A stretch of 64,000 bases of DNA from GCF_988243305.1 NZ_OZ547136.1; one strand, 5' to 3'; shown: positions 37,342 through 56,538, counted from the stretch's first letter. The notes: generated from the letters alone by a model not told the origin. A program made the numbers and translations.

Positions 37342-38319
37342 TTACTTCGCGTTGTAATTACGCAGAGCATTACGCCCCAACACAATCCCCGCGCCAACCA
37401 TGCCGCCCAGCAGCACCGCCAGAATCAAGGTAATTGCCTTTTTCGGGCTATCGCGACGAATAGGTAACGTCGGTTTCATCACATAACGGTAAGCATGAAT
37501 ATCAAGATCATCAACCTTTAAGTTTTCAATATCCAACAGGTTTTGACGTGTCTGATAGTAGTTTGGTGAGAACACCAACGGACGGGTCGCCTCATGCTTA
37601 ATCATCGACTCCAGCGCTTCGCTACCCAAAAGGAACAACGTATCTTGCGTCACATCTTCAGTCTGCTGAACCTGTGGCTTTGTCACCTGCGCCTGATTCG
37701 CATACTGCAACGCTTCCTGAATCTGACGGATACGCAGATCTTTCTGCTCCTGCGCAACTACTTCCTGCGTTCTTAAAGAGTCCTGCAAGTTTTTCCGTCC
37801 CAGAGCAATGTTGTCCTTGAGATCCTTTTCTAACTCTTGATTCACTTTATCGTCAACTTGCTGAATGTATTGGGCCAACTTCATTTGTGCGCCCTCTGCA
37901 GTTTGCCCAACATAAGAAACAGTTAATGGTAATTGCTGGTTCTTAACAGAAGGTTCGATGGTAAGTTTTTCTGGTTCTTCCTGATTATCCAGCGTTTCTG
38001 CTAATGCAGAGAAGGCAGAACTGAAGCGACCAATTAACGTCTCCTGCAAATCCGATACTTTCGGTGCAGCCTGACCATAGATAACATTCATGGCATTGTT
38101 ATAGCCAGCAATTTGCCCCACGTCGGGCTGAGTGATAATTGCTGTTGACGTCCATTTCTCCTTCGCTACTACCAAATATCCAATAGCCAGGGCAATAGCC
38201 ACAATGACGGAAATGATGATTGTCATCTTGCCACGCCACAACTGCACTAGTAAATCAATCAAATCAATCTGTTCCGGGTCATGGTTTTGCCCAGAAACAT
38301 TATTATTTTCTACTCTCAT
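37342..38319 (-). CDS. wzzB: O-antigen chain-length determinant (polysaccharide co-polymerase)
   Basis: Start at MRVENNNVSGQNHDPEQIDLIDLLVQLWRGK...; TM helices at both ends with a periplasmic coiled-coil domain. Confidence 0.93.
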   Translation of the reverse strand: MRVENNNVSGQNHDPEQIDLIDLLVQLWRGKMTIIISVIVAIALAIGYLVVAKEKWTSTAIITQPDVGQIAGYNNAMNVIYGQAAPKVSDLQETLIGRFSSAFSALAETLDNQEEPEKLTIEPSVKNQQLPLTVSYVGQTAEGAQMKLAQYIQQVDDKVNQELEKDLKDNIALGRKNLQDSLRTQEVVAQEQKDLRIRQIQEALQYANQAQVTKPQVQQTEDVTQDTLFLLGSEALESMIKHEATRPLVFSPNYYQTRQNLLDIENLKVDDLDIHAYRYVMKPTLPIRRDSPKKAITLILAVLLGGMVGAGIVLGRNALRNYNAK

Positions 38320-38464
38320 CATTACCCTAACTGACGGAAATTTCCAAGTCCGCATAGTTTAGCGATAATCCCCGTGAATGCTATAGGATAAGCGATAAAA
38401 ATAATGAATTATTGCGGAGGTAACAAAAGACAATCAGGGCGTAAATAGCCCTGATAACAAGATG

Positions 38465-39879: not shown

Positions 39880-41286
39880 TTAATCCAGCCATTCAGTATG
39901 GAACACACCTTCTTTATCAATGCGCTTATAAGTATGCGCACCGAAATAGTCACGCTGTGCCTGGATCAGGTTCGCAGGCAGAACAGCGGCACGGTAGCTA
40001 TCGTAATAGGCAACCGCAGCAGCGAAGGTCGGAACCGGGATACCGTTCTGTACTGCATAAGCAACGACATCACGCAGCGCCTGCTGGTAGTCATCGGCAA
40101 TTTGCTTGAAGTACGGAGCCAGCAGCAGGTTAGCGATCTGCGGATTTTCGGCATAAGCATCGGTGATTTTCTGCAAGAACTGCGCACGAATGATGCAACC
40201 AGCACGGAAAATCTTCGCGATTTCGCCGTAGTTCAGATCCCAGTTGTACTCTTCAGACGCTGCGCGCAGCTGAGAGAAACCCTGAGCGTAAGAAACGATT
40301 TTGCCCAGATACAGAGCACGACGAACTTTTTCGATGAACTCACCTTTGTCGCCAGCTGGCTGCGCTTGCGGGCCAGAGAGAACTTTAGATGCGGCAACAC
40401 GCTGCTCTTTCAGAGAAGAGATATAACGTGCAAACACAGACTCGGTAATCAGCGACAGCGGTTCTCCGAGATCAAGCGCGCTCTGGCTGGTCCATTTACC
40501 GGTACCTTTGTTAGCCGCTTCATCCAGGATCACATCAACCAGGTAGTTACCGTCTTCATCTTTTTTGGTGAAGATGTCTTTGGTGATGTCGATCAGGTAA
40601 CTACTCAGTTCACCGTTATTCCACTCGGTAAAGGTCTGTGCCAGTTCTTCGTTAGAGAGATTCAGGCCGCCTTTCAGGAGAGAATAGGCTTCAGCAATCA
40701 GTTGCATATCACCGTATTCAATACCGTTGTGAACCATCTTCACATAGTGACCCGCGCCATCAGCACCAATATAGGTAACGCACGGTTCGCCATCTTCAGC
40801 AACGGCGGCGATTTTGGTCAGGATCGGAGCAACCAGTTCATAGGCTTCTTTCTGCCCACCAGGCATGATGGAAGGCCCTTTCAGCGCCCCCTCTTCACCG
40901 CCGGAAACACCGGTACCGATGAAGTTAAAACCTTCGGCAGAAAGCTCACGGTTACGACGAATGGTGTCCTGGAAGAAGGTGTTACCACCATCAATGATGA
41001 TGTCACCTTTATCGAGGTATGGCTTGAGAGAATCAATAGCAGCATCCGTGCCTGCACCTGCTTTCACCATTAACAGGATGCGACGAGGCGTTTCCAGAGA
41101 TTCAACGAACTCTTTCACCGTATAGTAAGGAACCAGTTTCTTGCCTGGATTTTCGGCAATCACTTCTTCCGTCTTCTCACGGGAGCGGTTGAAAATAGAG
41201 ACGGTATAACCACGGCTTTCGATGTTGAGCGCAAGGTTGCGCCCCATCACTGCCATACCGACGACGCCGATCTGTTGCTTTGACAT
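39880..41286 (-). CDS. gnd: 6-phosphogluconate dehydrogenase (decarboxylating)
   Basis: 468-aa product [27 protein letters not shown]... Confidence 0.97.
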
Positions 41287-41448: not shown

Positions 41449-42819
41449 TTACTTATTCAGTAACTCAAGGATAAGTTTTGTCTTTTCTTCCATCAGCGGC
41501 ACATCACCGCGCGATTCCACATTCAGGCGCACCACCGGTTCGGTGTTGGAGGAGCGCAGGTTAAAGCGCCAGTCGGCAAAGGTCATGCTGATGCCATCGG
41601 TACGATCCACCGCCAGCGCCTCGCGGCTAAAGTGCTGTTCGACGCGGTTAATCGCCTCAACGGGTTGCGCCAGTTTGCTGTTGATCTCACCGCTTGCCGG
41701 AAACGCTGCCATCCGGTCGCGCACCAGTTCGCCCAGCGTTTTTCCTTTCAGGCACACCAGTTCGGCTACCAGCAGCCACGGGATCATGCCGCTGTCGCAG
41801 TAAGCGAAATCACGGAAGTAATGGTGAGCGCTCATTTCGCCACCATAGATGGCGTCTTCCTTGCGCATACGTTCTTTAATAAAGGCGTGTCCGGTTTTCG
41901 ACATCACCGGAGTGCCGCCCGCGGCGGTCACCACATCAACGGTATTCCAGGAGAGACGTGGATCGTGGATGATCTTCGCGCCGGGATTTTTTTCGAGGAA
42001 CGCTTCTGCCAGCAGGCCGACAATGTAATAGCCCTCGATAAACTGCCCTTTTTCGTCAAACAGGAAGCAGCGGTCAAAATCGCCATCAAAGGCAATGCCC
42101 ATATCCGCTCCGTGTTTGATGACCGCATTGCGGGTGTCGTCGCGACATTCCGGCAGCAGCGGATTAGGAATACCGTTGGGGAAATTGCCGTCCGGCGTGT
42201 TGTGTACTTTGATTAATTCCACCGGTGCGCCGAGGGCTTTAAATCGGGCTTCAATGGCGTCCACCACCGGACCCGCCGCGCCGTTCCCGGAGTTAATCAC
42301 CAGCTTGAGCGACGTGAGGTTTTTGACGTTGATATAACCGAACAGGTGCTCAACGTAAGCGTCACGCAGATTGATTTGTTGATAGCGACCGCGTTTGGTT
42401 TCATCGACGGGAGGAAAGTCGTTGGCTTCTGCCAGACGCTGGACATCGCGTAGTCCGGTATCACCGCTGATCGGGCGAGCCCCCTCGCGAACCAGCTTCA
42501 TGCCGTTATAATCCATCGGATTATGGCTGGCGGTGACTTCAATGCCGCCATCCACGCCGAGATGGAACGTGGCGAAATAGATTTCTTCGGTGCCGGACAT
42601 GCCAATATCCAGCACATCGACGCCCGCATCCTGTAAACCTTTCGCCAGCGCCAGTTTTAAGGTTTCGCTGGTGAGGCGGGCATCACCGCCTAACACAATG
42701 GTTTTCGGTTTGAGAAATTCGCCATAGGCGCGACCAATGCGCCACGCAATATCTTCATTCAGTTCTTCGCCTAATTTCCCGCGAATATCATAGGCTTTAA
42801 AGCAGGTTAATTTTTTCAT
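41449..42819 (-). CDS. manB: phosphomannomutase (O-antigen cluster copy)
   Basis: 456-aa product [33 protein letters not shown]...; phosphohexomutase TASHNP active-site motif. Confidence 0.93.
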
Positions 42820-42843
42820 ATAAAAACCTTACCAATAATAAAA

Positions 42844-43602
42844 TTATTTATGCGCAAATAATTGCATTAGTTTTGATATTTTTCTGATAATGATAGCAAT
42901 TTTCCAATTTACATTATGGTTTTTCATAACTTCTACAATTTCCTTTGTACTTGATATCGCGTTATCAATTCTGGTACTTTCCCCACCCAATCTCATCTTT
43001 ACAAATACTTGAGGAACATAAATAACTTTAATATCATCACGTTTCAAAATCCTGACCATCTGATCATAGTCTGCAGCAATCCTATAGGATAAATCAAAAT
43101 ATCCATCGTCTTTATATAATTCCCTCCTCATATAGAAAGATGGATGCGGTGGTGCCCAGCCTAATGATAGCTTAGAACGTTTAAAAGGACCACTACGCCA
43201 GTATCGTTTGATTATATCAATTTGGTTTTTTTCGAAAAAAACCAAATCACCGTATACAACATCCGCTTTTGTCTCATGGAAACGGCTTACAATAGTTTCA
43301 ATAATATCAGGTCTTGCTAAAAGGTCATCAGAATGAACGAATCCAATAATATCTCCCGTAGATAAATTTATACCTTTATTTAAAGCATCATAGATACCGT
43401 TATCGCTTTCTGATAGACATTTGGTTACTCTTGTTGATACTTCGTTAATTAGTTTTAACGTATTATCTGTAGAACCACCATCAATAATTATATACTCTAT
43501 ATCTTTATAGGTTTGCAACTCTATTGACTCTAAAGTATCCCTTAAAGTCTTTTCACTATTATAAGTCACTGTAATAATACTGACTTTCATTTTAACATCC
43601 AA
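42844..43602 (-). CDS. family 2 glycosyltransferase (O-antigen)
   Basis: N-terminal VSIITVTYNSEKTL and DGGSTD motifs typical of GT2; 252 aa; low-GC sequence. Confidence 0.8.
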   Translation of the reverse strand: MDVKMKVSIITVTYNSEKTLRDTLESIELQTYKDIEYIIIDGGSTDNTLKLINEVSTRVTKCLSESDNGIYDALNKGINLSTGDIIGFVHSDDLLARPDIIETIVSRFHETKADVVYGDLVFFEKNQIDIIKRYWRSGPFKRSKLSLGWAPPHPSFYMRRELYKDDGYFDLSYRIAADYDQMVRILKRDDIKVIYVPQVFVKMRLGGESTRIDNAISSTKEIVEVMKNHNVNWKIAIIIRKISKLMQLFAHK

Positions 43603-43673
43603 TAATAATCATAATTAAATAACGTCAGTACCGCATTACGAATAATAATGTTGCATTAGTATCCAGCATCATT

Positions 43674-45074
43674 TTAGATTCTAACAACATCATCTTCATC
43701 CAAGTAAACACCTGAACGTACCTCAATAATCTCCAAAGGGATCTTTCCTGGATTCTCAATAAAATGAGGTACACCTATTGGTATATAAGTTGATTCATTT
43801 TCAGAAACAAGAAATATTTCATCTTCATAATGGACTTTTGCTGTTCCAGAAACAACAATCCAATGCTCAGTACGATGGTAATGAATCTGTTTAGCAGTTT
43901 TATGTCCAGGATGAATAACGACATGTTTAACCTCAAATCGAGATCCTTCCGCTATAGAGTCATGACTGCCCCATGGCCTAAATATTTCACGATGCTGCAG
44001 ATATTCCGTACGGTTATTAACTTTAAGTTTTTCTACAATATTTTTTACCTGTTGAACTTTATCTTTATGCGCAACGAGAATAGCATCTTTAGTTTCAACA
44101 ACTACTAAATCTTTAACTCCTACTACACCAATTAATCTATGTTGTGAGTAAAGATAACTGTCAGAAGAATCATGAATTAATACATCTCCTCTAATTGCAT
44201 TTCCACTTTTATCTTTTCTGCTAATTTCCCATAATGCAGACCAAGAACCAACATCGCTCCAGTGGGCATTTAATGGAACTACCACAGCCTCTGTTGTTTT
44301 CTCCATAACAGCGTAATCAATGGATTCTTCAGGGCAACAACTAAATGAGTCATTATCTATACGGATAAAATCAAGATCTTGTGTAGAGGACTTCAATGCT
44401 TGTTGGCATATTTTTAGTATGTCTGGTCTAAATTTATTCAACTCATCAATAAACACAGAAGCCCTAAACATGAATATTCCACTATTCCAAAGATAATCTC
44501 CATCTTCAAGATATTTTTTGGCCACATCTAGCTCAGGCTTTTCAACAAAAGCAGAAACTTTAAAACCATATTCATTTAAATTTTCTCCGGTTTTTATATA
44601 GCCATATCCAGTTTCGGGTTTGGTTGGCACAATACCAAAAGTTACCAGCTTACCTTCCTCTGCAAATTCTTTTGCAGCCAATATTGACGATATAAAGCGC
44701 TTTTGGTCTTGTATTTCATGATCGGCTGCTAGTACAAGCAGTATTGGATCCTCACCTGATGAAATCGCTTTAAGAGCAGCAAGCGCAACTGCGGGGGCAG
44801 TATTACGACCTACCGGCTCTAGTAAAATGCCACTATTCGCTAAATTTACATTACGCATCTGTTCTGCAACGATAAAACGATGAACTTCATTACAAATAAC
44901 CAGAGCAGGACGATGTTCAACCCCTTCAAGCCTTCTTAAGGTCTCTTGTAGCATAGTCAAACGACTAGTTAACGACAGGAATTGCTTCGGATATAGTGTT
45001 CGAGAAAGTGGCCACAATCTAGTTCCAGAACCACCGGCCATTACAACAGGAAGTAGCATATAAATAACCTTCAC
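43674..45074 (-). CDS. manC: mannose-1-phosphate guanylyltransferase
   Basis: N-terminal nucleotidyltransferase domain (LPVVMAGGSGTRLWPLSR) and C-terminal cupin domain; start overlaps the gmm stop (ATGA). Confidence 0.93.
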   Translation of the reverse strand: MKVIYMLLPVVMAGGSGTRLWPLSRTLYPKQFLSLTSRLTMLQETLRRLEGVEHRPALVICNEVHRFIVAEQMRNVNLANSGILLEPVGRNTAPAVALAALKAISSGEDPILLVLAADHEIQDQKRFISSILAAKEFAEEGKLVTFGIVPTKPETGYGYIKTGENLNEYGFKVSAFVEKPELDVAKKYLEDGDYLWNSGIFMFRASVFIDELNKFRPDILKICQQALKSSTQDLDFIRIDNDSFSCCPEESIDYAVMEKTTEAVVVPLNAHWSDVGSWSALWEISRKDKSGNAIRGDVLIHDSSDSYLYSQHRLIGVVGVKDLVVVETKDAILVAHKDKVQQVKNIVEKLKVNNRTEYLQHREIFRPWGSHDSIAEGSRFEVKHVVIHPGHKTAKQIHYHRTEHWIVVSGTAKVHYEDEIFLVSENESTYIPIGVPHFIENPGKIPLEIIEVRSGVYLDEDDVVRI

Positions 45075-45526
45075 TTAAAATAATTTTTTGTGTACTGATG
45101 AACTGAGGAATTAGCTAACAATTCGGCTATATCGAACCAATTGTAAGTACTATGTTGTAGTGTTGGATAGTTAATTTGATGTGGCATCAAACTAATCTCA
45201 TATCCGTGTACGACATAATGAGTTGAAAAACAAGTCCCAGAAAAATTGTCGCTGTAGAAATGTTCATAAATCCCAAGAAATTTTGCTTCATTAATGCTAA
45301 TTTGAACACCCAATTCTTCAAAAGTAACTCTTTTGAATGCGTTCTCGAAAGACTCATCTTTAAGAATCCGTCCCCCCGGCACAAACCAATAATTTTGTGC
45401 TGGACGATTAAGGCGCTGACCAAGCAGCGCCTTACCATCTTCGTTTCTTATAATAAGGTCTATCGAGATTAGTGGAGTATGTTCAACTATTGATTTAAAT
45501 AACTCTGTTTCTAATCTCTTGTTCAA
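45071..45526 (-). CDS. gmm: GDP-mannose mannosyl hydrolase (NUDIX)
   Basis: NUDIX box GGRILKDESFENAFKRVTFEELG; 151 aa. Confidence 0.88.
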   Translation of the reverse strand: MNKRLETELFKSIVEHTPLISIDLIIRNEDGKALLGQRLNRPAQNYWFVPGGRILKDESFENAFKRVTFEELGVQISINEAKFLGIYEHFYSDNFSGTCFSTHYVVHGYEISLMPHQINYPTLQHSTYNWFDIAELLANSSVHQYTKNYFK

Positions 45527-45528
45527 TA

Positions 45529-46494
45529 TTAACTCCTAAATGAGTCAAGATTATTTATAAACCATTTATATGTTAATTCTAGTCCTTGTTTTAAATTATA
45601 ACGATATTTCCAGCCCAAATTCTCAAGGCGTGTAACATCCATAAGTTTACGAGGCGAACCATCTGGTTTTGTTATATCAAAAACAATTTTTCCATCATAG
45701 CCAACAACTAAAGCCATTGTTTCTGCCATTTCACGTATGGAACAATCAACACCAGTACCTACGTTAATATGAGATAACATTGGTTGAGTATTTTTTTTAT
45801 AAATTTCATCATCAAGCTCCATCACATATACTGATGCAGCTGCCATATCATCAACATATAAAAACTCGCGTTTTGGAGTTCCCGTTCCCCAGACAACCAC
45901 TTCATTTAAACCAAGTTCCTTTGCTTCATGAAAACGCCGCATAAGCGCTGGAATTACATGTGAGTTATTGGGATGAAAATTATCATTCATACCATATAAG
46001 TTAGTAGGCATTACACTGCGATAATCACATCCATATTGGCGATTATAAGATTCACATAGCTTTATACCTGCTATTTTGGAAATAGCATAAGGCTCATTAG
46101 TAGGCTCAAGAGTTCCCGTCAAAAGTGCAGATTCTTTCATTGGCTGTTCTGCAAACTTTGGATAGATACAACTTGACCCTAAGAATAATAGTTTCTTTAT
46201 GCCCGCTTTATAAGATGAGTGAATAATATTGCTTTCAATGAGAAGGTTCTGATAAATAAATTCAGCTGGAAAAGTGTTATTAGCATGAATTCCTCCTACT
46301 TTTGCTGCTGCAAGGTAAACCTGATCTATTCTCTCTTGCTCAAAAAAACATTCAACATCCTTTTGAACTGTCAAATCGAGTTCTTTGTGAGTTTTGACAA
46401 TTAACTCAACATCATTACGTGCTAATAATTGACGACAAATAGCAGAACCAACCATCCCACGATGTCCAGCCACAAAAATTCGCTTCTTGGTCAT
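45529..46494 (-). CDS. fcl: GDP-L-fucose synthase
   Basis: 321-aa product [23 protein letters not shown]... Confidence 0.93.
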
Positions 46495-46497
46495 ACT

Positions 46498-47619
46498 TTA
46501 ACGCTCCAAAGAGACTGCCACGTCAAAACCATGGCTTTTAAGAAGTGCATGCTGTTTAGCTTTTTCTAAATCACTAGCCACCATTTCTGCACACATTTCT
46601 TCAACTGTAATCTCTGGCTCCCAACCCAAGACATTTTTTGCTTTTGTTGGATCACCAAGAAGAGTTTCAACTTCTGCTGGTCGAAAATAACGAGGGTCAA
46701 CGCGAACAATAACATCACCAATATTAACACCAACGGCGCAATCTGATGTTTTATTTACAACCATTGCAACCTCATCAACACCAGTACCGGAAAACTCAAG
46801 TTCAAGTCCAACTTCTTTAGCAGACATACGGACAAATTCACGTACAGATATTTGTTTGCCAGTGGCAATAACAAAGTCTTCTGGCTGGTCTTGTTGAAGC
46901 ATCATCCATTGCATACGAACATAATCTTTCGCATGCCCCCAATCACGTAAAGAATCCATGTTGCCAAGATATAAGCATTTTTCTATTCCCTGCGAAATAT
47001 TAGCTATAGCACGTGTGATTTTACGTGTTACAAACGTTTCCCCACGACGTGGGGATTCATGATTGAACAAAATACCGTTGCATGCATACATTCCATAAGA
47101 CTCACGATAGTTTACAGTGATCCAATATGCATACAGTTTAGCTACGGCATAAGGTGAACGAGGATAGAACGGCGTTGCCTCTTTTTGTGGAACTTCCTGA
47201 ACTAATCCATACAATTCAGAGGTTGACGCCTGATAAAATCGGGTTTTTTTTTCTAATCCCAAAAAACGAATAGCTTCCAATAATCGTAAAGTACCTATAG
47301 CATCAACATCAGCTGTATATTCTGGGGATTCGAAGGAAACAGCTACGTGACTCATTGCTCCGAGGTTGTAAACTTCATCAGGTTGAACTTCAGATAATAT
47401 ACGAGTCAAATTAGAAGTATCTGTTAAGTCACCATAATGAAGGTGTAATTTTAAATTAATATTATGGGGATCTTGGTATATATGGTCAATACGTCCAGTA
47501 TTAAAAATAGAAGAACGTCGTTTTATTCCATGAACCTCGTAACCTTTATTTAGTAGAAACTCTGCCAAATATGAACCATCTTGACCAGTAATGCCAGTAA
47601 TTAATGCTTTCTTTGTCAT
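46498..47619 (-). CDS. gmd: GDP-mannose 4,6-dehydratase
   Basis: 373-aa product [37 protein letters not shown]... Confidence 0.95.
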
Positions 47620-47629
47620 AAAATTATTC

Positions 47630-48664
47630 CTACAGTAGTTTCTTGTAAATATCGATAGTTTTGTCAGTACATTTTTTCCAAGAAAAACGTTGTGCTTGAG
47701 ATAAACCTTTCTTAATAATTTGATTTCGATTTCTATTTATAAATGATATACCATCAATAAGGTTGCTTATACTTAACTCATCCATCAAATAACCGGCGTC
47801 ACCTGCAACCTCTGGTATTGAGGAGTGATTATACGCAATGAATGGGCATCCTGCCCTCATTGCTTCTAAAAGAGGAATACCAAATCCTTCATAACTTGAC
47901 GGATAAATAAGAGAATGAGCTTGATTAAATTTTAGATTCAACTCTTGCTCAGTTAAATATGGATAATGAATATATCGATATGGTATATATTTATCAAGTA
48001 AAAATTTCTCAGCCTTTCCCAAAGGGCCTCCACCTACAATATATAGTTTGAACCCCTCTAATTTGTTTATTGCTTCAACTGCAAGTTGAAAGTTTTTATA
48101 TGCTTTTCTCGAACCAATAAAAAGCATGAAATTATCATCATCGTTATAATTAACGTTTTTTAATTCATAAAAATTATCAGACACCCCATTGTGAATGATT
48201 TCGATTTTACTTTCAGGTACTGGACAATACCTCAACAAATCATTGGCAGTATTTTCTGAAATGCAAATTATTTTATCACTGTTTTTTATAGCATTGTACT
48301 TCTGATGACAATGAACGTATTTACGTAAACCTGACATATATTTTTCATATGTAAAGTCATGTACTGTTGTTATGTTTTTATTTTTTTTGCCCTTACTAAA
48401 TCTATAATAACTAGAATGTAATAGAGAGTTTTCAGGAATATCAACAGCTCGATACCTTTCAAGAAAGCGAGGATATAGATTAATATAACGTCCAGGTTGT
48501 CGCACATCTTCACTTATAAATTGACAGCCTGTATTCTCATAGTTTAATATCGTATATTCAATATTTGTGGCTTTTATCGCTTTTATTATTTGATTATAAT
48601 AAACAGAAATGCCACCGTATGACTGGAGATTATATATAATACCATCCAAATATAACATAGGCAC
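47630..48664 (-). CDS. GT-B fold glycosyltransferase (GT1/GT4-like; O-antigen)
   Basis: C-terminal EX7E-type motif region [23 protein letters not shown]; 344 aa. Confidence 0.8.
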
Positions 48665-48673
48665 CTTTTATAT

Positions 48674-49687
48674 TTAATTGTATCCATCAGGATTTAGCGT
48701 ATGCCATTTCCACGCAGAAGAAAGCATTTCGGTCAAATCTCGCCTAGCCTTCCAGTCCAGTTCTTTTTCAGCTTTGGAAACATCCGCCCAACATTCTGCA
48801 ACATCGCCGCTTCGGTTAGGGCCAAAACTATAATTAATATTTTTCCCAATAATTGATTGAAATGTTTTTATTACTTCTAATACAGAATATCCTCTACCCG
48901 TACCTAAGTTATATATTTTATAATTTCCTCCTTTGCCAAACATTTTAAATGCTGAAATATGCCCCTCAGCTAAATCATTTACATGAATATAATCTCTGAT
49001 ACCAGTCCCATCAGGCGTTGGATAGTCATGACCATAAATAGTAAGCGCAGGTAATTTACCTAAAGCAACATTCATCATATATGGAACTAAGTTAGCAGGA
49101 GTACCTCTGGGATTTTCACCTATTAACCCAGACTCATGCGCCCCCACTGGATTAAAATATCGCAAAATAATCACATCTAATTTAGGGTTTGCCAGAGAAG
49201 CATCTTTTAATATAACCTCGGAGTAATATTTACTGGTCCCGTATGGATTCGTTGTTTCACCTATACGACATTTTTCATTGATAGGTATCGTTTCTGGAAG
49301 ACCGTACACCGTAGCAGATGAGCTAAAGATAATTTTATTTACATGAAAGATCTTCATTAACTCTAACAAATTTAAAAGCCCAACAATATTATTCATATAA
49401 TAACGTATAGGACTTTGAACTGATTCTGAGACAGACTTAAGGCCTGCAAAATGTAATACTTTAGAGAATGTGTGATTCGTGAATATAGTCTTTAATTCTT
49501 TTTTGTCCAATAAATCTACCTTATATGCTCTGATTTTCTTACCACTAAGCTTTGAAATGACTTTGATGATATCTTCTGTAGAATTAGAAAAATTATCTAT
49601 GATGACAACGTCTTCATTCTGCTCCAATAATGACAGAACAGTATGGGACCCAATATATCCAGCTCCACCCGTAACTAATATTGTCAT
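48674..49687 (-). CDS. UDP-hexose 4-epimerase (GalE family)
   Basis: N-terminal ILVTGGAGYIGSH Rossmann motif and a YGTSK catalytic motif; 337 aa; low GC, so cluster-specific rather than housekeeping galE. Confidence 0.82.
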   Translation of the reverse strand: MTILVTGGAGYIGSHTVLSLLEQNEDVVIIDNFSNSTEDIIKVISKLSGKKIRAYKVDLLDKKELKTIFTNHTFSKVLHFAGLKSVSESVQSPIRYYMNNIVGLLNLLELMKIFHVNKIIFSSSATVYGLPETIPINEKCRIGETTNPYGTSKYYSEVILKDASLANPKLDVIILRYFNPVGAHESGLIGENPRGTPANLVPYMMNVALGKLPALTIYGHDYPTPDGTGIRDYIHVNDLAEGHISAFKMFGKGGNYKIYNLGTGRGYSVLEVIKTFQSIIGKNINYSFGPNRSGDVAECWADVSKAEKELDWKARRDLTEMLSSAWKWHTLNPDGYN

Positions 49688-49696
49688 AAAAACACC

Positions 49697-51019
49697 TTAT
49701 TTGAATTTAAAAAAAACTATTTGCATCGATAATCTCAAGCATATGTATGCCATAAAGAACATACCTAATTCAAATATCATAGAAGAAAACTCTGAGCGTT
49801 GGAAATTGATAGATTGGGAAAGAAAAACAAGATAAAGAAAATAGTTGCTCCCAATTAACCTTTCCATTATATATGAATAACCACATAAAATGGCAGGAAA
49901 TATAATTACACCATAATAATTATAATTAATAAAAGCTTCTGTAAAAGGAGTAAATGCATATCCCATCATAAACTCTTGACTTGGCAAATAAACTTCCTTT
50001 GCAAATTGAATAGCTAATGTGTCTGGCTTTAATCCCATAAATAATTCTTTTGGTATAAAGTTTACAATGAACTGAAGATAGGATATACCAAAAAATTGAG
50101 TCTGATAATGTATCGAAGAATAATATTGAAGTGTAGATATAGGATAAATAAATTCACCCAAAGCATTCAATAATCTTATGCTTGATTCGACATTATAATC
50201 TGAACGATATATCCCAAAAAGTATAATCGTTGATACAAATAGAATACTGAACAACGCTACTTTTAATGGTATCTTAAATTTAGCTTTATAAAGTGATAGC
50301 AATACAGCCATAATAAAAGATAAAGCAATTTCTCGTCTTGAACCTACCAGCATTAAAGTATAAAAATATAAAAGCACAGGTATGCTGTATATTACGAAAC
50401 TATAATTTGTGAGACTTTTTTTTACTATCTTTAAATCAAGTAAAATCCAAAAATAAGCAATAACCACATATTTCAGATACCATCCACTTTGACTTACCGA
50501 ATTAATTAACTCTAGGCGAGTACTTTCGCCCAAAGCATTCAGAGAAAGATTTCTTGATTGATATAGAAAAAATAATGATATTAACCATGCTATGCATGAT
50601 GGAATAAATAGATTATAGTTATTGTCATAGTTATATTGTTTGTTTAAAAGAAATATATTGATACCGTGAGGCCTAATCAAACTAATCGATGCAACTATAC
50701 ACCAAACAGCAACACAATATAAGAATGAAGTGTTGATTATATTATTTTCAACATTAAATACATTAACACCAAAAAAATAATACAACAAAAAAGACACAAA
50801 AAAATAAAAAGGCGATAATATTATAAATATTCCATCAAACCATACCCACATTCGATTATATACAAAAAAAAGAATTGCAATTGTAAATATTACAGATAAA
50901 AACCAAATTAGGATAGCATCAATTTCAACTTTGACAGAAGTGCTCAATACAGCAATCATTATCAACCCAATAAAGCCATAAAATTGAGCCAATACCAGTT
51001 TGTATTGTTTATAAATCAT
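49697..51019 (-). CDS. wzy: O-antigen polymerase
   Basis: 440-aa highly hydrophobic polytopic protein with very low GC, positioned among the glycosyltransferases. Confidence 0.75.
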   Translation of the reverse strand: MIYKQYKLVLAQFYGFIGLIMIAVLSTSVKVEIDAILIWFLSVIFTIAILFFVYNRMWVWFDGIFIILSPFYFFVSFLLYYFFGVNVFNVENNIINTSFLYCVAVWCIVASISLIRPHGINIFLLNKQYNYDNNYNLFIPSCIAWLISLFFLYQSRNLSLNALGESTRLELINSVSQSGWYLKYVVIAYFWILLDLKIVKKSLTNYSFVIYSIPVLLYFYTLMLVGSRREIALSFIMAVLLSLYKAKFKIPLKVALFSILFVSTIILFGIYRSDYNVESSIRLLNALGEFIYPISTLQYYSSIHYQTQFFGISYLQFIVNFIPKELFMGLKPDTLAIQFAKEVYLPSQEFMMGYAFTPFTEAFINYNYYGVIIFPAILCGYSYIMERLIGSNYFLYLVFLSQSINFQRSEFSSMIFELGMFFMAYICLRLSMQIVFFKFK

Positions 51020-51854
51020 ATTTTAACAATCCCGTCCAGAAACCGATTAATCTGTACATATATAATTTTTTTTGTTTTTTTAAAACGATACCAAAAAATG
51101 ATTTTACTGTGATCCTGAAAATTTCCAATAGTAATAAATAACGAGATTTCACTAAATACTTCTTTATCACGACACCATATCCAACTGCATATTTTCTGTA
51201 TTTTTCTGGTATCCCTTCACAATATAAATCATTATCGTGATAAACTCCAAATATAGGTTGAAAACATACTCTAAACCCAAGAGATTTCAGCCGAAAAAAT
51301 AACTCCGTTTCTTCGGATCCACCGAATAAAGTACCAACACCTAACCTTTCATCAAAATATATATTATCGAGTTTATGAGTAAAAATAAAAGTACCCACAC
51401 TTAGTGACGATTTAATTATTTGATTATAACCCATTTCCTTTTTAGTTTTAGGATAAACTCTATTGGCATAAGATTTCATTGTTTGAAAATCTAATACAGG
51501 AACTGAAAGAACGGTTTCTTTTTTGATATTTGATTGAATCACCTTCTCAAAAAAATCAGGAGCATAAAAAGCATCATCATCACAGAACCCAATAACATTA
51601 CCACTGCATAGTTTAAGCCCTTGATTACGAGCAGTTGAAAGTGGTACTTTATTTGATTTAACCAACTTGTATTTTATATTTTTTGCGTGTTTTAAAAATA
51701 ATTGCTCAATTATGATATCATCAGTCTGATCAATAAATATAATTTCTAGGTTTTTGTACGTACTGCTAGCTATGCTATTTAGCAGTCGTTCAATTTCTTT
51801 ATCCCTTCCACCTTGAGTTGTGCCTATCAAACTAATTTTATAAAAGTTATTCAT
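51009..51854 (-). CDS. family 2 glycosyltransferase (O-antigen)
   Basis: GT2-like N-terminal domain with a DDD motif (GFCDDDAFY); 281 aa. Confidence 0.75.
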   Translation of the reverse strand: MNNFYKISLIGTTQGGRDKEIERLLNSIASSTYKNLEIIFIDQTDDIIIEQLFLKHAKNIKYKLVKSNKVPLSTARNQGLKLCSGNVIGFCDDDAFYAPDFFEKVIQSNIKKETVLSVPVLDFQTMKSYANRVYPKTKKEMGYNQIIKSSLSVGTFIFTHKLDNIYFDERLGVGTLFGGSEETELFFRLKSLGFRVCFQPIFGVYHDNDLYCEGIPEKYRKYAVGYGVVIKKYLVKSRYLLLLEIFRITVKSFFGIVLKKQKKLYMYRLIGFWTGLLKYDL

Positions 51855-51855
51855 A

Positions 51856-52776
51856 TTAATATCCTTTTTTTAAGATTGAATTAATCTTTATTTTACAATA
51901 ATAAGCAAATTTTCTAAGAAAAACACCATTTATATATTTAATCTTTACTCCTAACTTAGAAAAAATAATAAAATACACCTTAAAATAATAACAAATAGCA
52001 TTAAGAAAACGATGACTTGATTGCGGAAACAAAACCATCCCTAGCTCATCTTTATCGAGAATAATCCCCTGTTTTTTTAAATTACCAATGGCAATAGATA
52101 TGTGAATATCTGCTTGTATATGCTTTTTTATATTCGATATTTGATTTCCGTGATTTCGATAATAAAGCAAGGGTATATTTATATTACAGAATTTTCCGTA
52201 GTTTGCTAATCTACTCCAAAACTCATAATCTTCAGCATATTGGTAGCGTGGCTTATAATATAGGCATTCTTTTTTTATAATGCTGCTTCTCATCATTACA
52301 GTTGGATGAGCAAAACAACTGCCCACCAACAATCCTATTTTACAGGCTTCGTCTGAGTTAGGCATTTTTATAATTTTTCCGCTATTAACAGCTGACTCAA
52401 AAACTTTGATATTAGTTCCACAACACGCTATTTTTTGATCTGCATCCATTATTTCAACTTGTAATCTCAACCTTTCTCTGTGAGCAATATCATCAGCATC
52501 CATTCTAGCAATATACACTCCCGTAGCCATGTCTAATAATTCATTTAAAGTAGCTACTATCCCTTTATTTTCTCTATGCTTAATTTTGAATATCGCGGGA
52601 TATTTATTTTTATATTCATCAAGTATCTTTTGTGTACCATCCTGCGAGCCATCATTGATGATGATAATTTCAAATATTTTATATGTTTGTTCCAATATAC
52701 TGTCAATGCATGCGCCTAAGTATTTTTCAGCATTATATACCGGTATTATAACGGATACTTTGTTTTTATTAATCAT
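51856..52776 (-). CDS. family 2 glycosyltransferase (O-antigen)
   Basis: N-terminus KVSVIIPVYNAEKYLGACIDSILEQTY and DGSQDGT, a classic GT2 signature; 306 aa. Confidence 0.85.
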   Translation of the reverse strand: MINKNKVSVIIPVYNAEKYLGACIDSILEQTYKIFEIIIINDGSQDGTQKILDEYKNKYPAIFKIKHRENKGIVATLNELLDMATGVYIARMDADDIAHRERLRLQVEIMDADQKIACCGTNIKVFESAVNSGKIIKMPNSDEACKIGLLVGSCFAHPTVMMRSSIIKKECLYYKPRYQYAEDYEFWSRLANYGKFCNINIPLLYYRNHGNQISNIKKHIQADIHISIAIGNLKKQGIILDKDELGMVLFPQSSHRFLNAICYYFKVYFIIFSKLGVKIKYINGVFLRKFAYYCKIKINSILKKGY

Positions 52777-52782
52777 AATATA

Positions 52783-54054
52783 TCATACTTTGTTTTTATT
52801 AAGCAGATAACAGATCGTTACTATTAAGGAGAACATATATAATGCTTGAGATATTATATACGCTTTAAAAACATAAGAAATTTGAGCATTTTCGACGTAG
52901 CATAACGAATACTTACTTAATATACAATATACAGACCATTGTAACACTTCTAACACTATATATTCTTTTACGAATGCTTTGCTAATCAGCAAATAACCAA
53001 GCACCCATGCAATTATCTTAAAAAAATCTCCAATTAGTTGATAAACTATAACATCAACAATAGGAACGAACTCGTGTGTAAATAGAATATTTACTATCAA
53101 ACCGCGAAATGTATACATCAAGACTGAAGATATACAAACTAACGGAACCAAATACAAATAACAAACTTTTATTTCATTAAGCAATTCTGAACGGTTAGAT
53201 GCACTTGAAAACCTTGGAAAGAAATATACCCCCAATGTAGTCGTAATTAACATCAAATAGACTGAACTTATTCTATTAACAGCATCCCACAACCCAGCAT
53301 ACTCAATATTTATTGATGTTATGATTTCATTTCTCACATATAACGTACTAACTGGCACTAATATAGCTGAAGTGACTGTCATTAAAGAAAAAATTATGAT
53401 CCGTTTTAATATTGAAATATCAATTCGATTGCAATTATTAACATAGTATTCTCTTAAATATTTTTTTGAGTAAAAAAAAGTCACAAAAAACAATATAGCT
53501 TGATTTGAAACTACAGCAATCAATGCTCCTCTCATACCAAAAGAGATTGTCAATATAAAGGCGTATATTGCAGATATTAAACTCGATATGATATTAATCC
53601 ATATATAATTTTTAATAAATGACAATCCATTTAACATAGAAAGAATTATATTATTCCATGCATATAAAATAACACTCCCTCCCAAGAAATAAATTGCGAT
53701 GCTTACTTCATCATTAGAATTGAAAAATTGTTCGATAATTATATTTTTAAAGATAATTATGATAACAGCGGTTATAAATCCCATTATAGTAGACAAATAA
53801 ATTGCATTAATCCAAAAACTCCAGATTTTTTCCTTATTACTATTCTTATACTCTGACGTATACTTAACAATACTCGTTGAAATAGCTTGTGATGGCGCAA
53901 CCATAGCTATATTAAGGATATTTTGGATTTGGCCAATAAGTGCATATCCAGACGTACCTAAATATATTGCGAATACTTTATTAAGTCCAAGTAGAGTTGC
54001 TATTTTGACAAATACAGAAAGGCCATTAAGAATAAAGACATTATATACTTTCAC
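52783..54054 (-). CDS. wzx: O-antigen flippase
   Basis: 423-aa polytopic protein of the polysaccharide-transport (MOP/PST) type, first gene of the low-GC block. Confidence 0.8.
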   Translation of the reverse strand: MKVYNVFILNGLSVFVKIATLLGLNKVFAIYLGTSGYALIGQIQNILNIAMVAPSQAISTSIVKYTSEYKNSNKEKIWSFWINAIYLSTIMGFITAVIIIIFKNIIIEQFFNSNDEVSIAIYFLGGSVILYAWNNIILSMLNGLSFIKNYIWINIISSLISAIYAFILTISFGMRGALIAVVSNQAILFFVTFFYSKKYLREYYVNNCNRIDISILKRIIIFSLMTVTSAILVPVSTLYVRNEIITSINIEYAGLWDAVNRISSVYLMLITTTLGVYFFPRFSSASNRSELLNEIKVCYLYLVPLVCISSVLMYTFRGLIVNILFTHEFVPIVDVIVYQLIGDFFKIIAWVLGYLLISKAFVKEYIVLEVLQWSVYCILSKYSLCYVENAQISYVFKAYIISQALYMFSLIVTICYLLNKNKV

Positions 54055-54122
54055 AGTTCACCTAACATATTAAGTAGGTTATGATAACAAAACTCATATT
54101 TAATTATACCATAAATATAAAC

Positions 54123-54134
54123 CACGCTACCGCC
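54123..54134 (-). promoter_or_regulatory. ops element (RfaH-dependent antitermination) within the JUMPstart region upstream of the O-antigen operon
   Basis: Top strand cacgctaccgcc equals GGCGGTAGCGTG on the transcribed strand, in the galF-wzx intergenic region. Confidence 0.8.
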
Positions 54135-54407
54135 CCTGGCTATACAGCTACCAGAGCACTGCGTGTGTGTCTACAATGTAACGAGCGTTTCATGCTCGCA
54201 ATAAACAAAAAACCAAAAGCTAAATTATCTTACTAATCAGCTCTGAAAACAAGGAAATGTGTAAAAAAAGTCCTATTGCTGACTTGTTATTATCCCGAAT
54301 ATTTATAAATCAATAATAGCAGGAAGACTCGCAACAAGTTACTTTGCCTGCTAATCTTCACAACTATTACAGTCTTTTCGCATCTGTTGCATCCGATTCG
54401 ATTTTCA

Positions 54408-55301
54408 TTATTCCCTTAACAGCTTCTCAATCCCTTTACGGAACTTCGCCCCTTCTTTTAGGTTACGCAGTCCATACTTCACAAACGCTTGCATATAACC
54501 CATTTTTTTACCGCAGTCGTAGCTGTCACCGGTCATCAGCATGGCATCAACAGACTGTTTTTTCGCCAGTTCGGCAATAGCATCAGTCAGTTGGATACGT
54601 CCCCATGCACCTGGCTGAGTGCGTTCCAGTTCCGGCCAAATATCGGCAGAAAGCACATAACGGCCCACGGCCATGATGTCTGAGTCCAGCGTCTGCGGCT
54701 GATCCGGTTTTTCGATAAATTCAACAATGCGGCTGACTTTACCTTCGCGATCCAGCGGTTCTTTGGTCTGGATGACGGAGTATTCAGAGAGGTCACCCGG
54801 CATACGTTTTGCCAGCACCTGGCTACGGCCCGTTTCATTGAAGCGTGCAATCATGGCAGCAAGGTTGTAGCGTAGCGGGTCGGCGCTGGCGTCGTCGATC
54901 ACAACGTCTGGCAGCACCACGACAAATGGATTGTCACCAATGGCGGGTCGTGCACACAAAATGGAATGACCTAAACCTAAAGGTTCGCCCTGACGCACGT
55001 TCATAATAGTCACGCCCGGCGGGCAGATAGATTGCACTTCCGCCAGTAGTTGACGCTTCACGCGCTGCTCAAGGAGAGATTCTAATTCATAAGAGGTGTC
55101 GAAGTGGTTTTCGACCGCGTTCTTGGACGCGTGAGTTACCAGGAGGATTTCTTTGATCCCTGCAGCCACAATCTCGTCAACAATGTACTGAATCATTGGC
55201 TTGTCGACGATCGGTAGCATCTCTTTGGGAATCGCCTTAGTGGCAGGCAACATATGCATCCCAAGACCCGCTACCGGTATAACTGCTTTTAAATTCGTCA
55301 T
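54408..55301 (-). CDS. galF: UTP-glucose-1-phosphate uridylyltransferase paralogue GalF
   Basis: Start at [43 protein letters not shown]... Confidence 0.95.
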
Positions 55302-55542
55302 CATTTTCCTACCTCTAAGTGGCTGATAGTGCGTAAATTATGCCATAGGTTAGCCAAACGGTATGGCTATATACCAAAGCTTAGTTCCGCATAACTTTGA
55401 TTAAACCTTACGATAACACTACACACCATCAGCATCTGGGTTACTCGGATTACTCGGAAATCCACATACTGATAATTTAATCAGTACCTCTTTCCGAATA
55501 ATCGTAGTCCAACCTGGTCCTTTTTTCTCTGACTCGTCTGCA

Positions 55543-56538
55543 TTACTCAGAAACAAACGTTATGTCGTCTTTTTTGGCATGAACGAATTCATACTGCAGA
55601 GTTCGATCCAGACCTTGCGACAGCGTATACGGTGCCACAAAACCTGAAGAATGCACTTTCGTTGCGTCAAACTGTGTTGTTGCGCAGAATTTTTTCACGC
55701 GCACTGAGCTGACAGCGTATTTTTTGCCCGTAATTTTGCTCAGGATATCAAAACAATATCCACCCAGCATTCCTAGTGGGTAAGGCAAGTGCATAGAAGG
55801 GATCTTTTTGTTCAGGCTTTGTTCAACTTCAGCAACCAACTGGTTCATGTTCAGGTCTGGCTTATCAACGTAGTTATAAACCTCATAACCTGCGGCAACA
55901 TTCTTCAGTTTGTACTTGATAAACTCAACAATGTTTCCAACATAAGCCATGGACTTATAGTTAGTTCCTGCACCCACCATCATAAACTTGCCGCCAGCGA
56001 TCTGTTTCAGCAAGTTATAGACGTTACCGCGGTTGCGTTCACCGAAGATAACGGTAGGACGGATGATGGTTAATGAACGTTCTGTTGGTGCTTTGTTATA
56101 CCATTCACGCAGCACTTCCTCTGCCTGCCACTTACTTTTGCCGTAGTGGTTGAAAGGGTCGTGTGGATGGTTTTCGTCAGGGTTATGTTTGTTCAAACCA
56201 TAAACAGCAACGGAACTGGTAAAGATGATATTTTTAACGCCATTTTTTTCCATGGCCGCCAGCACATTGCGGGTACCCTGAACGTTGACATCATAATAGA
56301 GAGAAGTAGGGCTGACGTCATCGCGGTGTTCCGCTGCCAGTAGTACAACAGTGTCAAAACCAACTAATGCCTGGTCGAGTGCCTGTTGATCGCGAACATC
56401 GCCAATCTGTGTGATTTCTGGATAAAAGTGGCTCTGCTGTTTGTCCAGGTTCTTGATATTAAAGTCAGCAATTGCCGTTTCAAGTAGTCGGGTTCCTACG
56501 AATCCGGAAGCTCCTATGAGCAAAACGTTATCGTTCAT
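55543..56538 (-). CDS. gne: UDP-N-acetylglucosamine 4-epimerase-type SDR protein (Z3206/Gne-like)
   Basis: 331-aa product MNDNVLLIGASGFVGTRLLE...; sits between galF and wcaM, as the Z3206-type gne does in several serogroups. Confidence 0.8.
   Translation of the reverse strand: MNDNVLLIGASGFVGTRLLETAIADFNIKNLDKQQSHFYPEITQIGDVRDQQALDQALVGFDTVVLLAAEHRDDVSPTSLYYDVNVQGTRNVLAAMEKNGVKNIIFTSSVAVYGLNKHNPDENHPHDPFNHYGKSKWQAEEVLREWYNKAPTERSLTIIRPTVIFGERNRGNVYNLLKQIAGGKFMMVGAGTNYKSMAYVGNIVEFIKYKLKNVAAGYEVYNYVDKPDLNMNQLVAEVEQSLNKKIPSMHLPYPLGMLGGYCFDILSKITGKKYAVSSVRVKKFCATTQFDATKVHSSGFVAPYTLSQGLDRTLQYEFVHAKKDDITFVSE

Follow-up and report, generated by a model that had tools for sequence, protein, structure and literature searches.

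Which O antigen is specified by the genes between gnd and galF in a 64,000-nucleotide stretch of NZ_OZ547136.1 (assembly GCF_988243305.1), and which of their products attaches the fucose? The locus under study runs from 41449, the stop of manB, to 54134, where the ops octamer GGCGGTAG ends, in the coordinates of the whole stretch, which we call the window. A preliminary description had read it as an O-antigen cluster for a fucose-containing O unit resembling the O86/O127/O128 group, and had left the serogroup unassigned and the identity of the fucosyltransferase open. Our analysis firmly answered the first question: judged by DNA identity in the block that holds wzx and wzy, the cluster is of serogroup O125, and not of O86/O127/O128. 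As to the second question, the fucosyltransferase is now most probably WdaG, the family 2 glycosyltransferase (GT2) encoded between manC and manB. O125 is a classical O group associated with enteropathogenic and enteroaggregative Escherichia coli.

The serogroup-specific half of the locus (47630-54054, from wzx to the gene of a family 4 glycosyltransferase, GT4) was compared by megablast with 5,426 complete E. coli genomes. It matched seven of them and no others, with 99.8-99.9% identity and full coverage of the query, and all seven carry an O-antigen flippase and polymerase annotated in RefSeq as 'O125 family'. Among them are the genome titled 'Escherichia coli O125ac:K+:H10 strain C 236-04A' and that of NCTC8623, which we take to be the O125 reference strain. 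In a base-by-base comparison, made with NCTC8623 only, the segment 41287-54407 was 99.909% identical, with 11 substitutions and one homopolymer indel. Ten of the twelve cluster proteins were within 0-1 residues of their NCTC8623 counterparts (Wzx and ManC identical, Wzy with one residue different), WetD was two residues off, and WetE differed through the indel in NCTC8623. The NCBIfam hidden Markov models gave neither wzx nor wzy, the genes used as markers in molecular O-typing, an O125 name, and the serogroup call is therefore based on identity at the DNA level with genomes that have been annotated and serotyped.

The indel itself lies near the 3' end of wetE (window about 51058-51065), where the window has a run of eight A residues and the NCTC8623 assembly a run of nine. 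WetE of NCTC8623 is consequently 279 residues long, with the last approximately 16 residues altered (retrieved locus 12387-13226), and WetE of the window is unaffected. Either a genuine frameshift in this old reference strain or an error of long-read sequencing could account for the ninth A.

The resemblance to O86/O127/O128 did not stand up to this comparison. Those serogroups and the window both have GDP-L-fucose genes, a Wzx/Wzy pathway and initiation with GalNAc; for a cluster of that group, with a terminal alpha-1,2-linked fucose of the H type, only gmd-fcl-gmm-manC-manB and a GalE-type epimerase could be cited as common ground. In contrast, no DNA match to them was found in the specific genes: wzx, wzy and three of the transferase genes matched O125-annotated genomes alone, in 7 of the 5,426 genomes, at an identity of at least 99.8%. 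The alpha-1,2-fucosyltransferases of O86, O127 and O128 (WbnK, WbiQ, WbsJ) belong to family GT11. Pfam scans of the four transferases of the window found Glycos_transf_2 in three and Glycos_transf_1/Glyco_transf_4 in the fourth, that is, families 2, 2, 4 and 2, and no Glyco_transf_11 domain (PF01531, GT11) in any of them, even at E<=10, in agreement with the preliminary description, which had seen no obvious GT11 signature. The sugars differ as well. The fucose of O125 is an internal, alpha-1,3-linked residue of the main chain, whereas that of O86/O127/O128 is terminal and GT11-made; moreover, the O127 unit is free of mannose (PMC7685785), and that of O125 contains it. Since the megablast search with 47630-54054 gave O125 genomes only, we rejected the assignment to O86/O127/O128, whose probability we regard as vanishingly small.

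The O125 cluster has already been described (Iguchi 2015; DebRoy 2016, PMC4732683; Furevi 2022, PMC9680116). The window has the same 12 genes as this known O125 (O125ab/O125ac) cluster, in the same order and with the same series of transferase families, and shows point differences only. Between the clusters of O125ab and O125ac the identity is 98-99.9%, and their merging has been proposed (DebRoy et al., PMC4732683). The O125ac unit is a pentasaccharide, ->4)[beta-D-Gal-(1->3)]-beta-D-GalNAc-(1->2)-alpha-D-Man-(1->3)-alpha-L-Fuc-(1->3)-alpha-D-GalNAc-(1->, and that of O125ab a hexasaccharide with an extra alpha-D-Glc-(1->3) on Man, for which a Gtr system outside the cluster has been suggested on a speculative basis (Furevi, Udekwu and Widmalm, PMC9680116). 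Because this distinguishing glucose is not encoded in the cluster, O125ab and O125ac cannot be called from it. No gtr gene turned up within 1-25 kb of the window (by the annotation of a relative) or within 37-58 kb, a region that runs from wzzB through wcaM (by open reading frames, ORFs, and family models). With its L-Fuc, GalNAc and Gal, the published unit bears out the earlier expectation of L-fucose together with Gal or GalNAc, and the serogroup matched by wzx and wzy is one whose unit contains fucose.

Read from galF to gnd, the ORF map gives wzx, GT2, GT2, wzy, GalE-type epimerase, GT4, gmd, fcl, gmm, manC, GT2 and manB, all 12 on the minus strand, which is exactly the order given before; the Wzx/Wzy-type cluster with a full GDP-L-fucose pathway and four transferases was likewise recovered with ORFs and family models. 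The flanking genes galF (54408-55304) and gnd (39880-41286), also on the minus strand, were each called from an ORF and an NCBIfam equivalog match above the cut-off. The genes of the GDP-L-fucose pathway were found at 46498-47619 (gmd; TIGR01472, 584 bits, cut-off 415), 45529-46494 (fcl, GDP-L-fucose synthase; NF047922, 538 bits, cut-off 500), 45071-45526 (gmm, a GDP-mannose mannosyl hydrolase of the Nudix type; NF011963, 194 bits, cut-off 146), 43674-45059 with the RefSeq start, or up to 45074 in the longest ORF (manC, mannose-1-phosphate guanylyltransferase/phosphomannose isomerase, 461 residues; TIGR01479, 741 bits), and 41449-42819 (manB, a CpsG-like phosphomannomutase; NF011943, 1048 bits). 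In all, equivalog cut-offs were passed by gmd, fcl, gmm, manC, manB/CpsG, GalE, galF, gnd, ugd and wzzB.

The GC content was 0.28-0.39 in 11 cluster genes and 0.54 in manB, so that the low GC noted earlier for the specific genes was confirmed. The low-GC block stops at the wdaG/manB junction, and manB scores as CpsG; this step in GC fits a recombination boundary within the cluster. All 12 products match the lengths of the RefSeq O125 products, save for the one-base homopolymer difference in the wetE of NCTC8623 itself. No insertion sequence was seen within the galF-gnd interval in the ORF list of the window, and wzzB, ugd, gnd, galF and gnu are intact. Thus, the genes of the O125 cluster are intact, and we hold with high confidence the reading as a whole, namely an intact E. 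coli O125 O-antigen cluster with the synthesis pathway proposed below. In practical terms, the analysis yields a serogroup call: the source of the window is an O125 E. coli, and the cluster, as far as DNA alone can tell, looks functional.

The four transferases have been named wetD, wetE, wdaF and wdaG, and WdaG has earlier been proposed as the fucosyltransferase on the grounds of stereochemistry and reverse gene order (PMC9680116). The wdaG gene (42844-43590, minus strand; longest ORF to 43602) encodes a protein of 248 residues with a Glycos_transf_2 domain. Its best relative in the PDB was WrtF of Rhizobium tropici (9OMH-9OMN), with E=6.9e-25 over residues 3-212, and the next family, chondroitin polymerase, followed at 3e-16. 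WrtF, the structure of which dates from 2025, is a GT2 alpha-L-fucosyltransferase and the first structurally characterised fucosyltransferase with a GT-A fold (PMC12595478). WdaG was also related to WbdO of O157 (30% identity, E=1e-24) and to WcaE of colanic acid synthesis (29%, 8e-16), each of the three being 248 residues long; its identity to WrtF, WbdO and WcaE is thus about 29-30% in each case. This similarity is significant and stronger than that to other GT2 enzymes. Biochemical work directly supports WbdO as an alpha-1,4-fucosyltransferase, and for WcaE the support comes from a knock-out (PMC12595478). The comparison enzymes of this clade form an alpha-1,4 linkage to Glc, whereas the linkage predicted for WdaG is alpha-1,3 to GalNAc on undecaprenyl diphosphate (GalNAc-PP-Und).

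We then considered the functional residues of WrtF in a MAFFT alignment of five sequences: WdaG, its O41 homologue, WbdO, WcaE and a WrtF fragment. The motif ExDxGIYDAxNKG, which holds the guanine-binding Asp, was invariant in all five; Asp66 of WrtF corresponds to D63 of WdaG, and Gly68-Ile69-Tyr70 to G65-I66-Y67. His142 and the catalytic base Asp167 of WrtF correspond to H149 and D174, respectively, and the motif, the His and the catalytic Asp are common to WdaG, WrtF, WbdO and WcaE. WetD and WetE served as GT2 controls for the match to WrtF, and neither showed the pattern seen in WdaG. The retention of the guanine-binding residues points to a GDP-sugar donor for WdaG. Given a guanine pocket together with an inverting fold, the only O125 step open to WdaG would be that from GDP-beta-L-Fuc to alpha-L-Fuc, because the other GDP-sugar step, the transfer of Man, yields an alpha linkage and needs retention, which excludes it for an inverting enzyme. 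WdaG is annotated as a putative GDP-L-fucose:GalNAc-PP-Und alpha-1,3-fucosyltransferase, an assignment that we consider probable.

Five residues have been described as conserved in GT2 fucosyltransferases, namely Asp66, His142, Asn143, Asp167 and Phe191 (F/Y) in WrtF numbering (PMC12595478). Although Asn143 is stated there to be conserved in all five GT2 fucosyltransferases, WcaE has Gln and the WdaG family Pro at this position in the MAFFT alignment, and WbdO has an H-Q pair there by BLAST, being misaligned at that point in MAFFT.

The surroundings of wdaG are in line with a role in fucose transfer. DNA homologues of wdaG were found in 228 of the 5,426 complete E. coli genomes, and nine cluster types were sampled: O125, O11, O43, O41, O36, O168, two unnamed types and one that is plasmid-borne. 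In all nine, a GT2 of 248 residues lies between manC and manB within a gmd-fcl-gmm-manC-GT2-manB block, the homologues being 51-96% identical to WdaG. About 68% of a 21.5-kb query, flanks included, matched the O11 cluster at approximately 97% identity, and its 3' module gmd-fcl-gmm-manC-wdaG-manB is common to the window at approximately 97% DNA identity, with WdaG (WP_000868617.1, 100% identical), Fcl and Gmm proteins the same as those of the O125 genomes and the window. A GT4 and a GalE-type epimerase occupy the same positions in O11, at 49% and 51% identity, respectively. In contrast, wzx, wzy and the 5' transferases of O11 are different ones, and so is the distal part of its O unit. In the synthesis of the O11 repeat, a GalNAc precursor with a free 3-OH received alpha-L-Fuc at that position, and D-Man was added thereafter (PMC4906483); by this route, the order of the reducing-end trisaccharide is the same as in O125.

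On these grounds we favour, with somewhat less confidence than the assignment of WdaG itself, a broader proposal. The WdaG-type GT2 enzymes may form a subclade of GT-A (GT2) fucosyltransferases with their own variant of the active site (HSDD, Pro for Asn143 and Met for Phe191), whose product, formed in the first committed step, would be alpha-L-Fuc-(1->3)-HexNAc-PP-Und, and the block may move between O-antigen clusters as a portable cassette for making and attaching fucose. This is a modest addition: the published assignment of WdaG is now backed by homology to WrtF and WbdO and by linkage to GDP-fucose genes in nine cluster types. Beyond that, nothing new on O-antigen biology emerged, apart from one mildly new point: the WdaG-type GT2 has the look of a branch of the GT-A fucosyltransferases, a recently defined group, that is carried on a cassette.

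The plasmid-borne type was found on p3575-NDM-5 (NZ_CP048012.1, 93.6 kb), which carries an O-antigen-like cluster at 7093-18254 of the retrieved locus. It consists of a flippase, a GT2, a Stealth CR1 protein, an EpsG/Wzy-like protein, a GT4 and gmd-fcl-gmm-manC-GT2-manB, and adjoins IS26 and an ISAs1 remnant.

With the published structure of the O unit, a pathway can be proposed. WecA, encoded elsewhere, would make GlcNAc-PP-Und, which Gnu would epimerise to GalNAc-PP-Und to provide the initiating sugar (role of Gnu: PMC9680116). ManB, ManC, Gmd and Fcl would supply GDP-Man and GDP-L-Fuc, and Gne the UDP-GalNAc for the internal GalNAc. WdaG, as an inverting GT2, would place alpha-L-Fuc-(1->3) on GalNAc, and WdaF, as a retaining GT4, alpha-Man-(1->3) on Fuc. 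By the published assignment, WetE would then act as a beta-1,2-N-acetylgalactosaminyltransferase on Man, and WetD as the beta-1,3-galactosyltransferase for the side-chain Gal (PMC9680116). The scheme behind this pairs three inverted linkages with the three GT2 enzymes and the one retained alpha-Man with the GT4, Man being the sole O125 residue with a retained anomeric configuration (PMC9680116). The four transferases, presumably cytoplasmic, would together build the pentasaccharide, Wzx would flip it across the membrane, Wzy would polymerise it via alpha-GalNAc-(1->4)-GalNAc, and WzzB would govern the chain length.

Wzx, the O125 O-unit flippase (52783-54054, 423 residues; all features in this paragraph are on the minus strand), was called from Pfam, its RefSeq name and DNA identity; it matches Polysacc_synt (PF01943) and has about 11 hydrophobic segments. 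Wzy, the O125 O-antigen polymerase (49697-51019, 440 residues), was called from its RefSeq name and its hydrophobic segments, of which there are about ten; it scored 33.5 bits with the repeat-unit polymerase model TIGR04370, below the cut-off of 40, and gave no match in Pfam. Lack of a Pfam family is usual for Wzy. A multi-pass flippase and a polymerase are thus present, no ORF for wzm or wzt, that is, for an ATP-binding cassette transporter, was found within the galF-gnd interval in the ORF list, and the pathway is of the Wzx/Wzy-dependent type. WzzB, the regulator of chain length, is encoded beyond gnd and ugd (37342-38355; NF012015, 609 bits). The wetD gene (51856-52776, 306 residues) and wetE (51009-51854, 281 residues) both encode proteins with a Glycos_transf_2 domain (5e-38 and 2e-17, respectively). 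WdaF (47630-48658 with the RefSeq start, longest ORF to 48664; 342 residues; Glycos_transf_1 and Glyco_transf_4) is the only enzyme of a retaining family in the cluster. Its best solved relative, a weak one, is a fragment of the mannosyltransferase WbaZ-1 (1.4e-9), and its counterparts adjoining gmd in O11, O36 and O43 are 40-52% identical (49-52% in O11 and O36). It is reasonable, from these likenesses, to regard WdaF as a candidate alpha-1,3-mannosyltransferase.

Two epimerases had been mentioned in the preliminary description, an internal one of the GalE family and a separate gne beyond galF. The internal gene was confirmed at 48674-49687 (minus strand, 337 residues; TIGR01179 GalE, 430 bits), and it is this gene that has been named gne (PMC9680116). 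The label did not hold for the one beyond galF (55543-56538, minus strand), which in current nomenclature is gnu, an Und-PP-GlcNAc 4-epimerase gene, by the RefSeq name of its orthologues in NCTC8623 and O11 strains and by matches to epimerase families of the short-chain dehydrogenase/reductase type. In a residue-for-residue alignment, Cys299 of Gne falls on the residue mutated in E. coli GalE Y299C (PDB 1LRK). Thoden and colleagues reportedly found in 2002 that the change of Tyr299 to Cys in GalE opens the pocket for N-acetylated substrates. The internal GalE-type Gne probably supplies UDP-GalNAc.

Upstream of wzx we found a JUMPStart sequence of 39 bp (54123-54161, minus strand), read as cagtgctctggtagctgtatagccaggggcggtagcgtg, with the ops element within it at 54127-54134 by motif match. 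JUMPStart/ops is the site of RfaH-dependent antitermination upstream of O-antigen operons. The element is intact in the window, and a scan of the cluster for promoters and terminators gave matches at chance level only. The cluster is predicted to form one operon under RfaH/JUMPStart control, and its expression is presumed. In the O125ac strain C 236-04A, ISKpn26 (IS5-like) lies between galF and wzx (retrieved locus 17214-18194), around the JUMPStart/promoter region; at this place the window is free of insertions.

Several points weigh against the account given above. Every linkage assignment in the cluster is a prediction, and the pairing of WetD and WetE with the two beta linkages follows the reverse gene-order rule, which holds in only 39% of clusters (Liu et al.). 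WdaG itself, whose membership of the clade is tentative for this reason, differs at two of the five signature residues, with Pro150 for Asn143 of WrtF and Met199 for Phe191, and its 'DxD' position reads HSDD, as opposed to GADD or N(A/S)GD. The AlphaFold model of WdaG, made from a 9-sequence alignment, is poor (predicted local distance difference test score, pLDDT, 64.8), so that its Foldseek ranking, in which the top 15 matches are WrtF chains, lends weak support and adds little beyond the sequence comparison. The missing equivalents of Asn143 and Phe191 would suit a different reading, in which WetD or WetE is the fucosyltransferase and WdaG moves Gal or GalNAc, as would the fact that the unit needs three inverted linkages and that each of these three GT2 enzymes is an inverting one (PMC9680116). 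We consider this distinctly unlikely. WetD is nearest to enzymes that use UDP-sugars, its closest solved relative in the PDB search being the chondroitin polymerase K4CP (6e-26), and its match to WrtF (7e-9) covers the N-terminal, nucleotide-binding part only; WetE gave only weak PDB matches, and none to WrtF. Neither of the two contains the ExDxGIYDAxNKG motif, as judged from the translations by eye. Furthermore, O11 has an identical WdaG and the same Fuc-GalNAc start, yet neither wetD nor wetE, and the homologues of WdaG travel with gmd-fcl in all nine sampled types. WdaG is thus the better candidate for the fucosyltransferase.

A further point concerns function rather than assignment. Expression and smooth lipopolysaccharide are not readable from DNA, and the operon is predicted from the sequence alone. 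A silent or defective cluster, in a strain that is rough or O-non-typeable and makes no O125 antigen, would be compatible with this, and relatives do carry lesions, as seen with ISKpn26 in the galF-wzx gap of C 236-04A and with the one-base indel of wetE in the NCTC8623 assembly. The window itself gives little ground for such a reading, which we regard as very unlikely: all 12 ORFs are of full length, JUMPStart/ops is undamaged, the interval from galF to gnd is free of insertion sequences, and no damage is seen in wzzB, ugd, gnd, galF or gnu within the window (waaL and wecA lie outside it). An intact O125 cluster remains the reading that we prefer.

Some minor observations were made along the way. 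In the collection of genomes, NZ_CP067426.1, titled 'O22:H8 strain 154', has wzx and wzy annotated as O168 family, so that its label and its cluster disagree. Elsewhere in the window, the first 25 kb comprise a CP4-44-like island and, after it, the sbmC-dacD-sbcB-yeeD/E region. The island, at about 1-17000, was recognised from the annotation of NZ_CP151161.1, and would contain a YfjI-family protein, a GTPase, an Ag43 autotransporter (about 6.8-10 kb), an antirestriction protein and a CbtA/CbeA toxin-antitoxin pair. At 18888-19868 on the minus strand, an ORF of 326 residues matches what is annotated as the transposase of IS621 (IS110 family) in a relative with 98.9% identity, in which IS621 splits a FUSC-family gene into two fragments.

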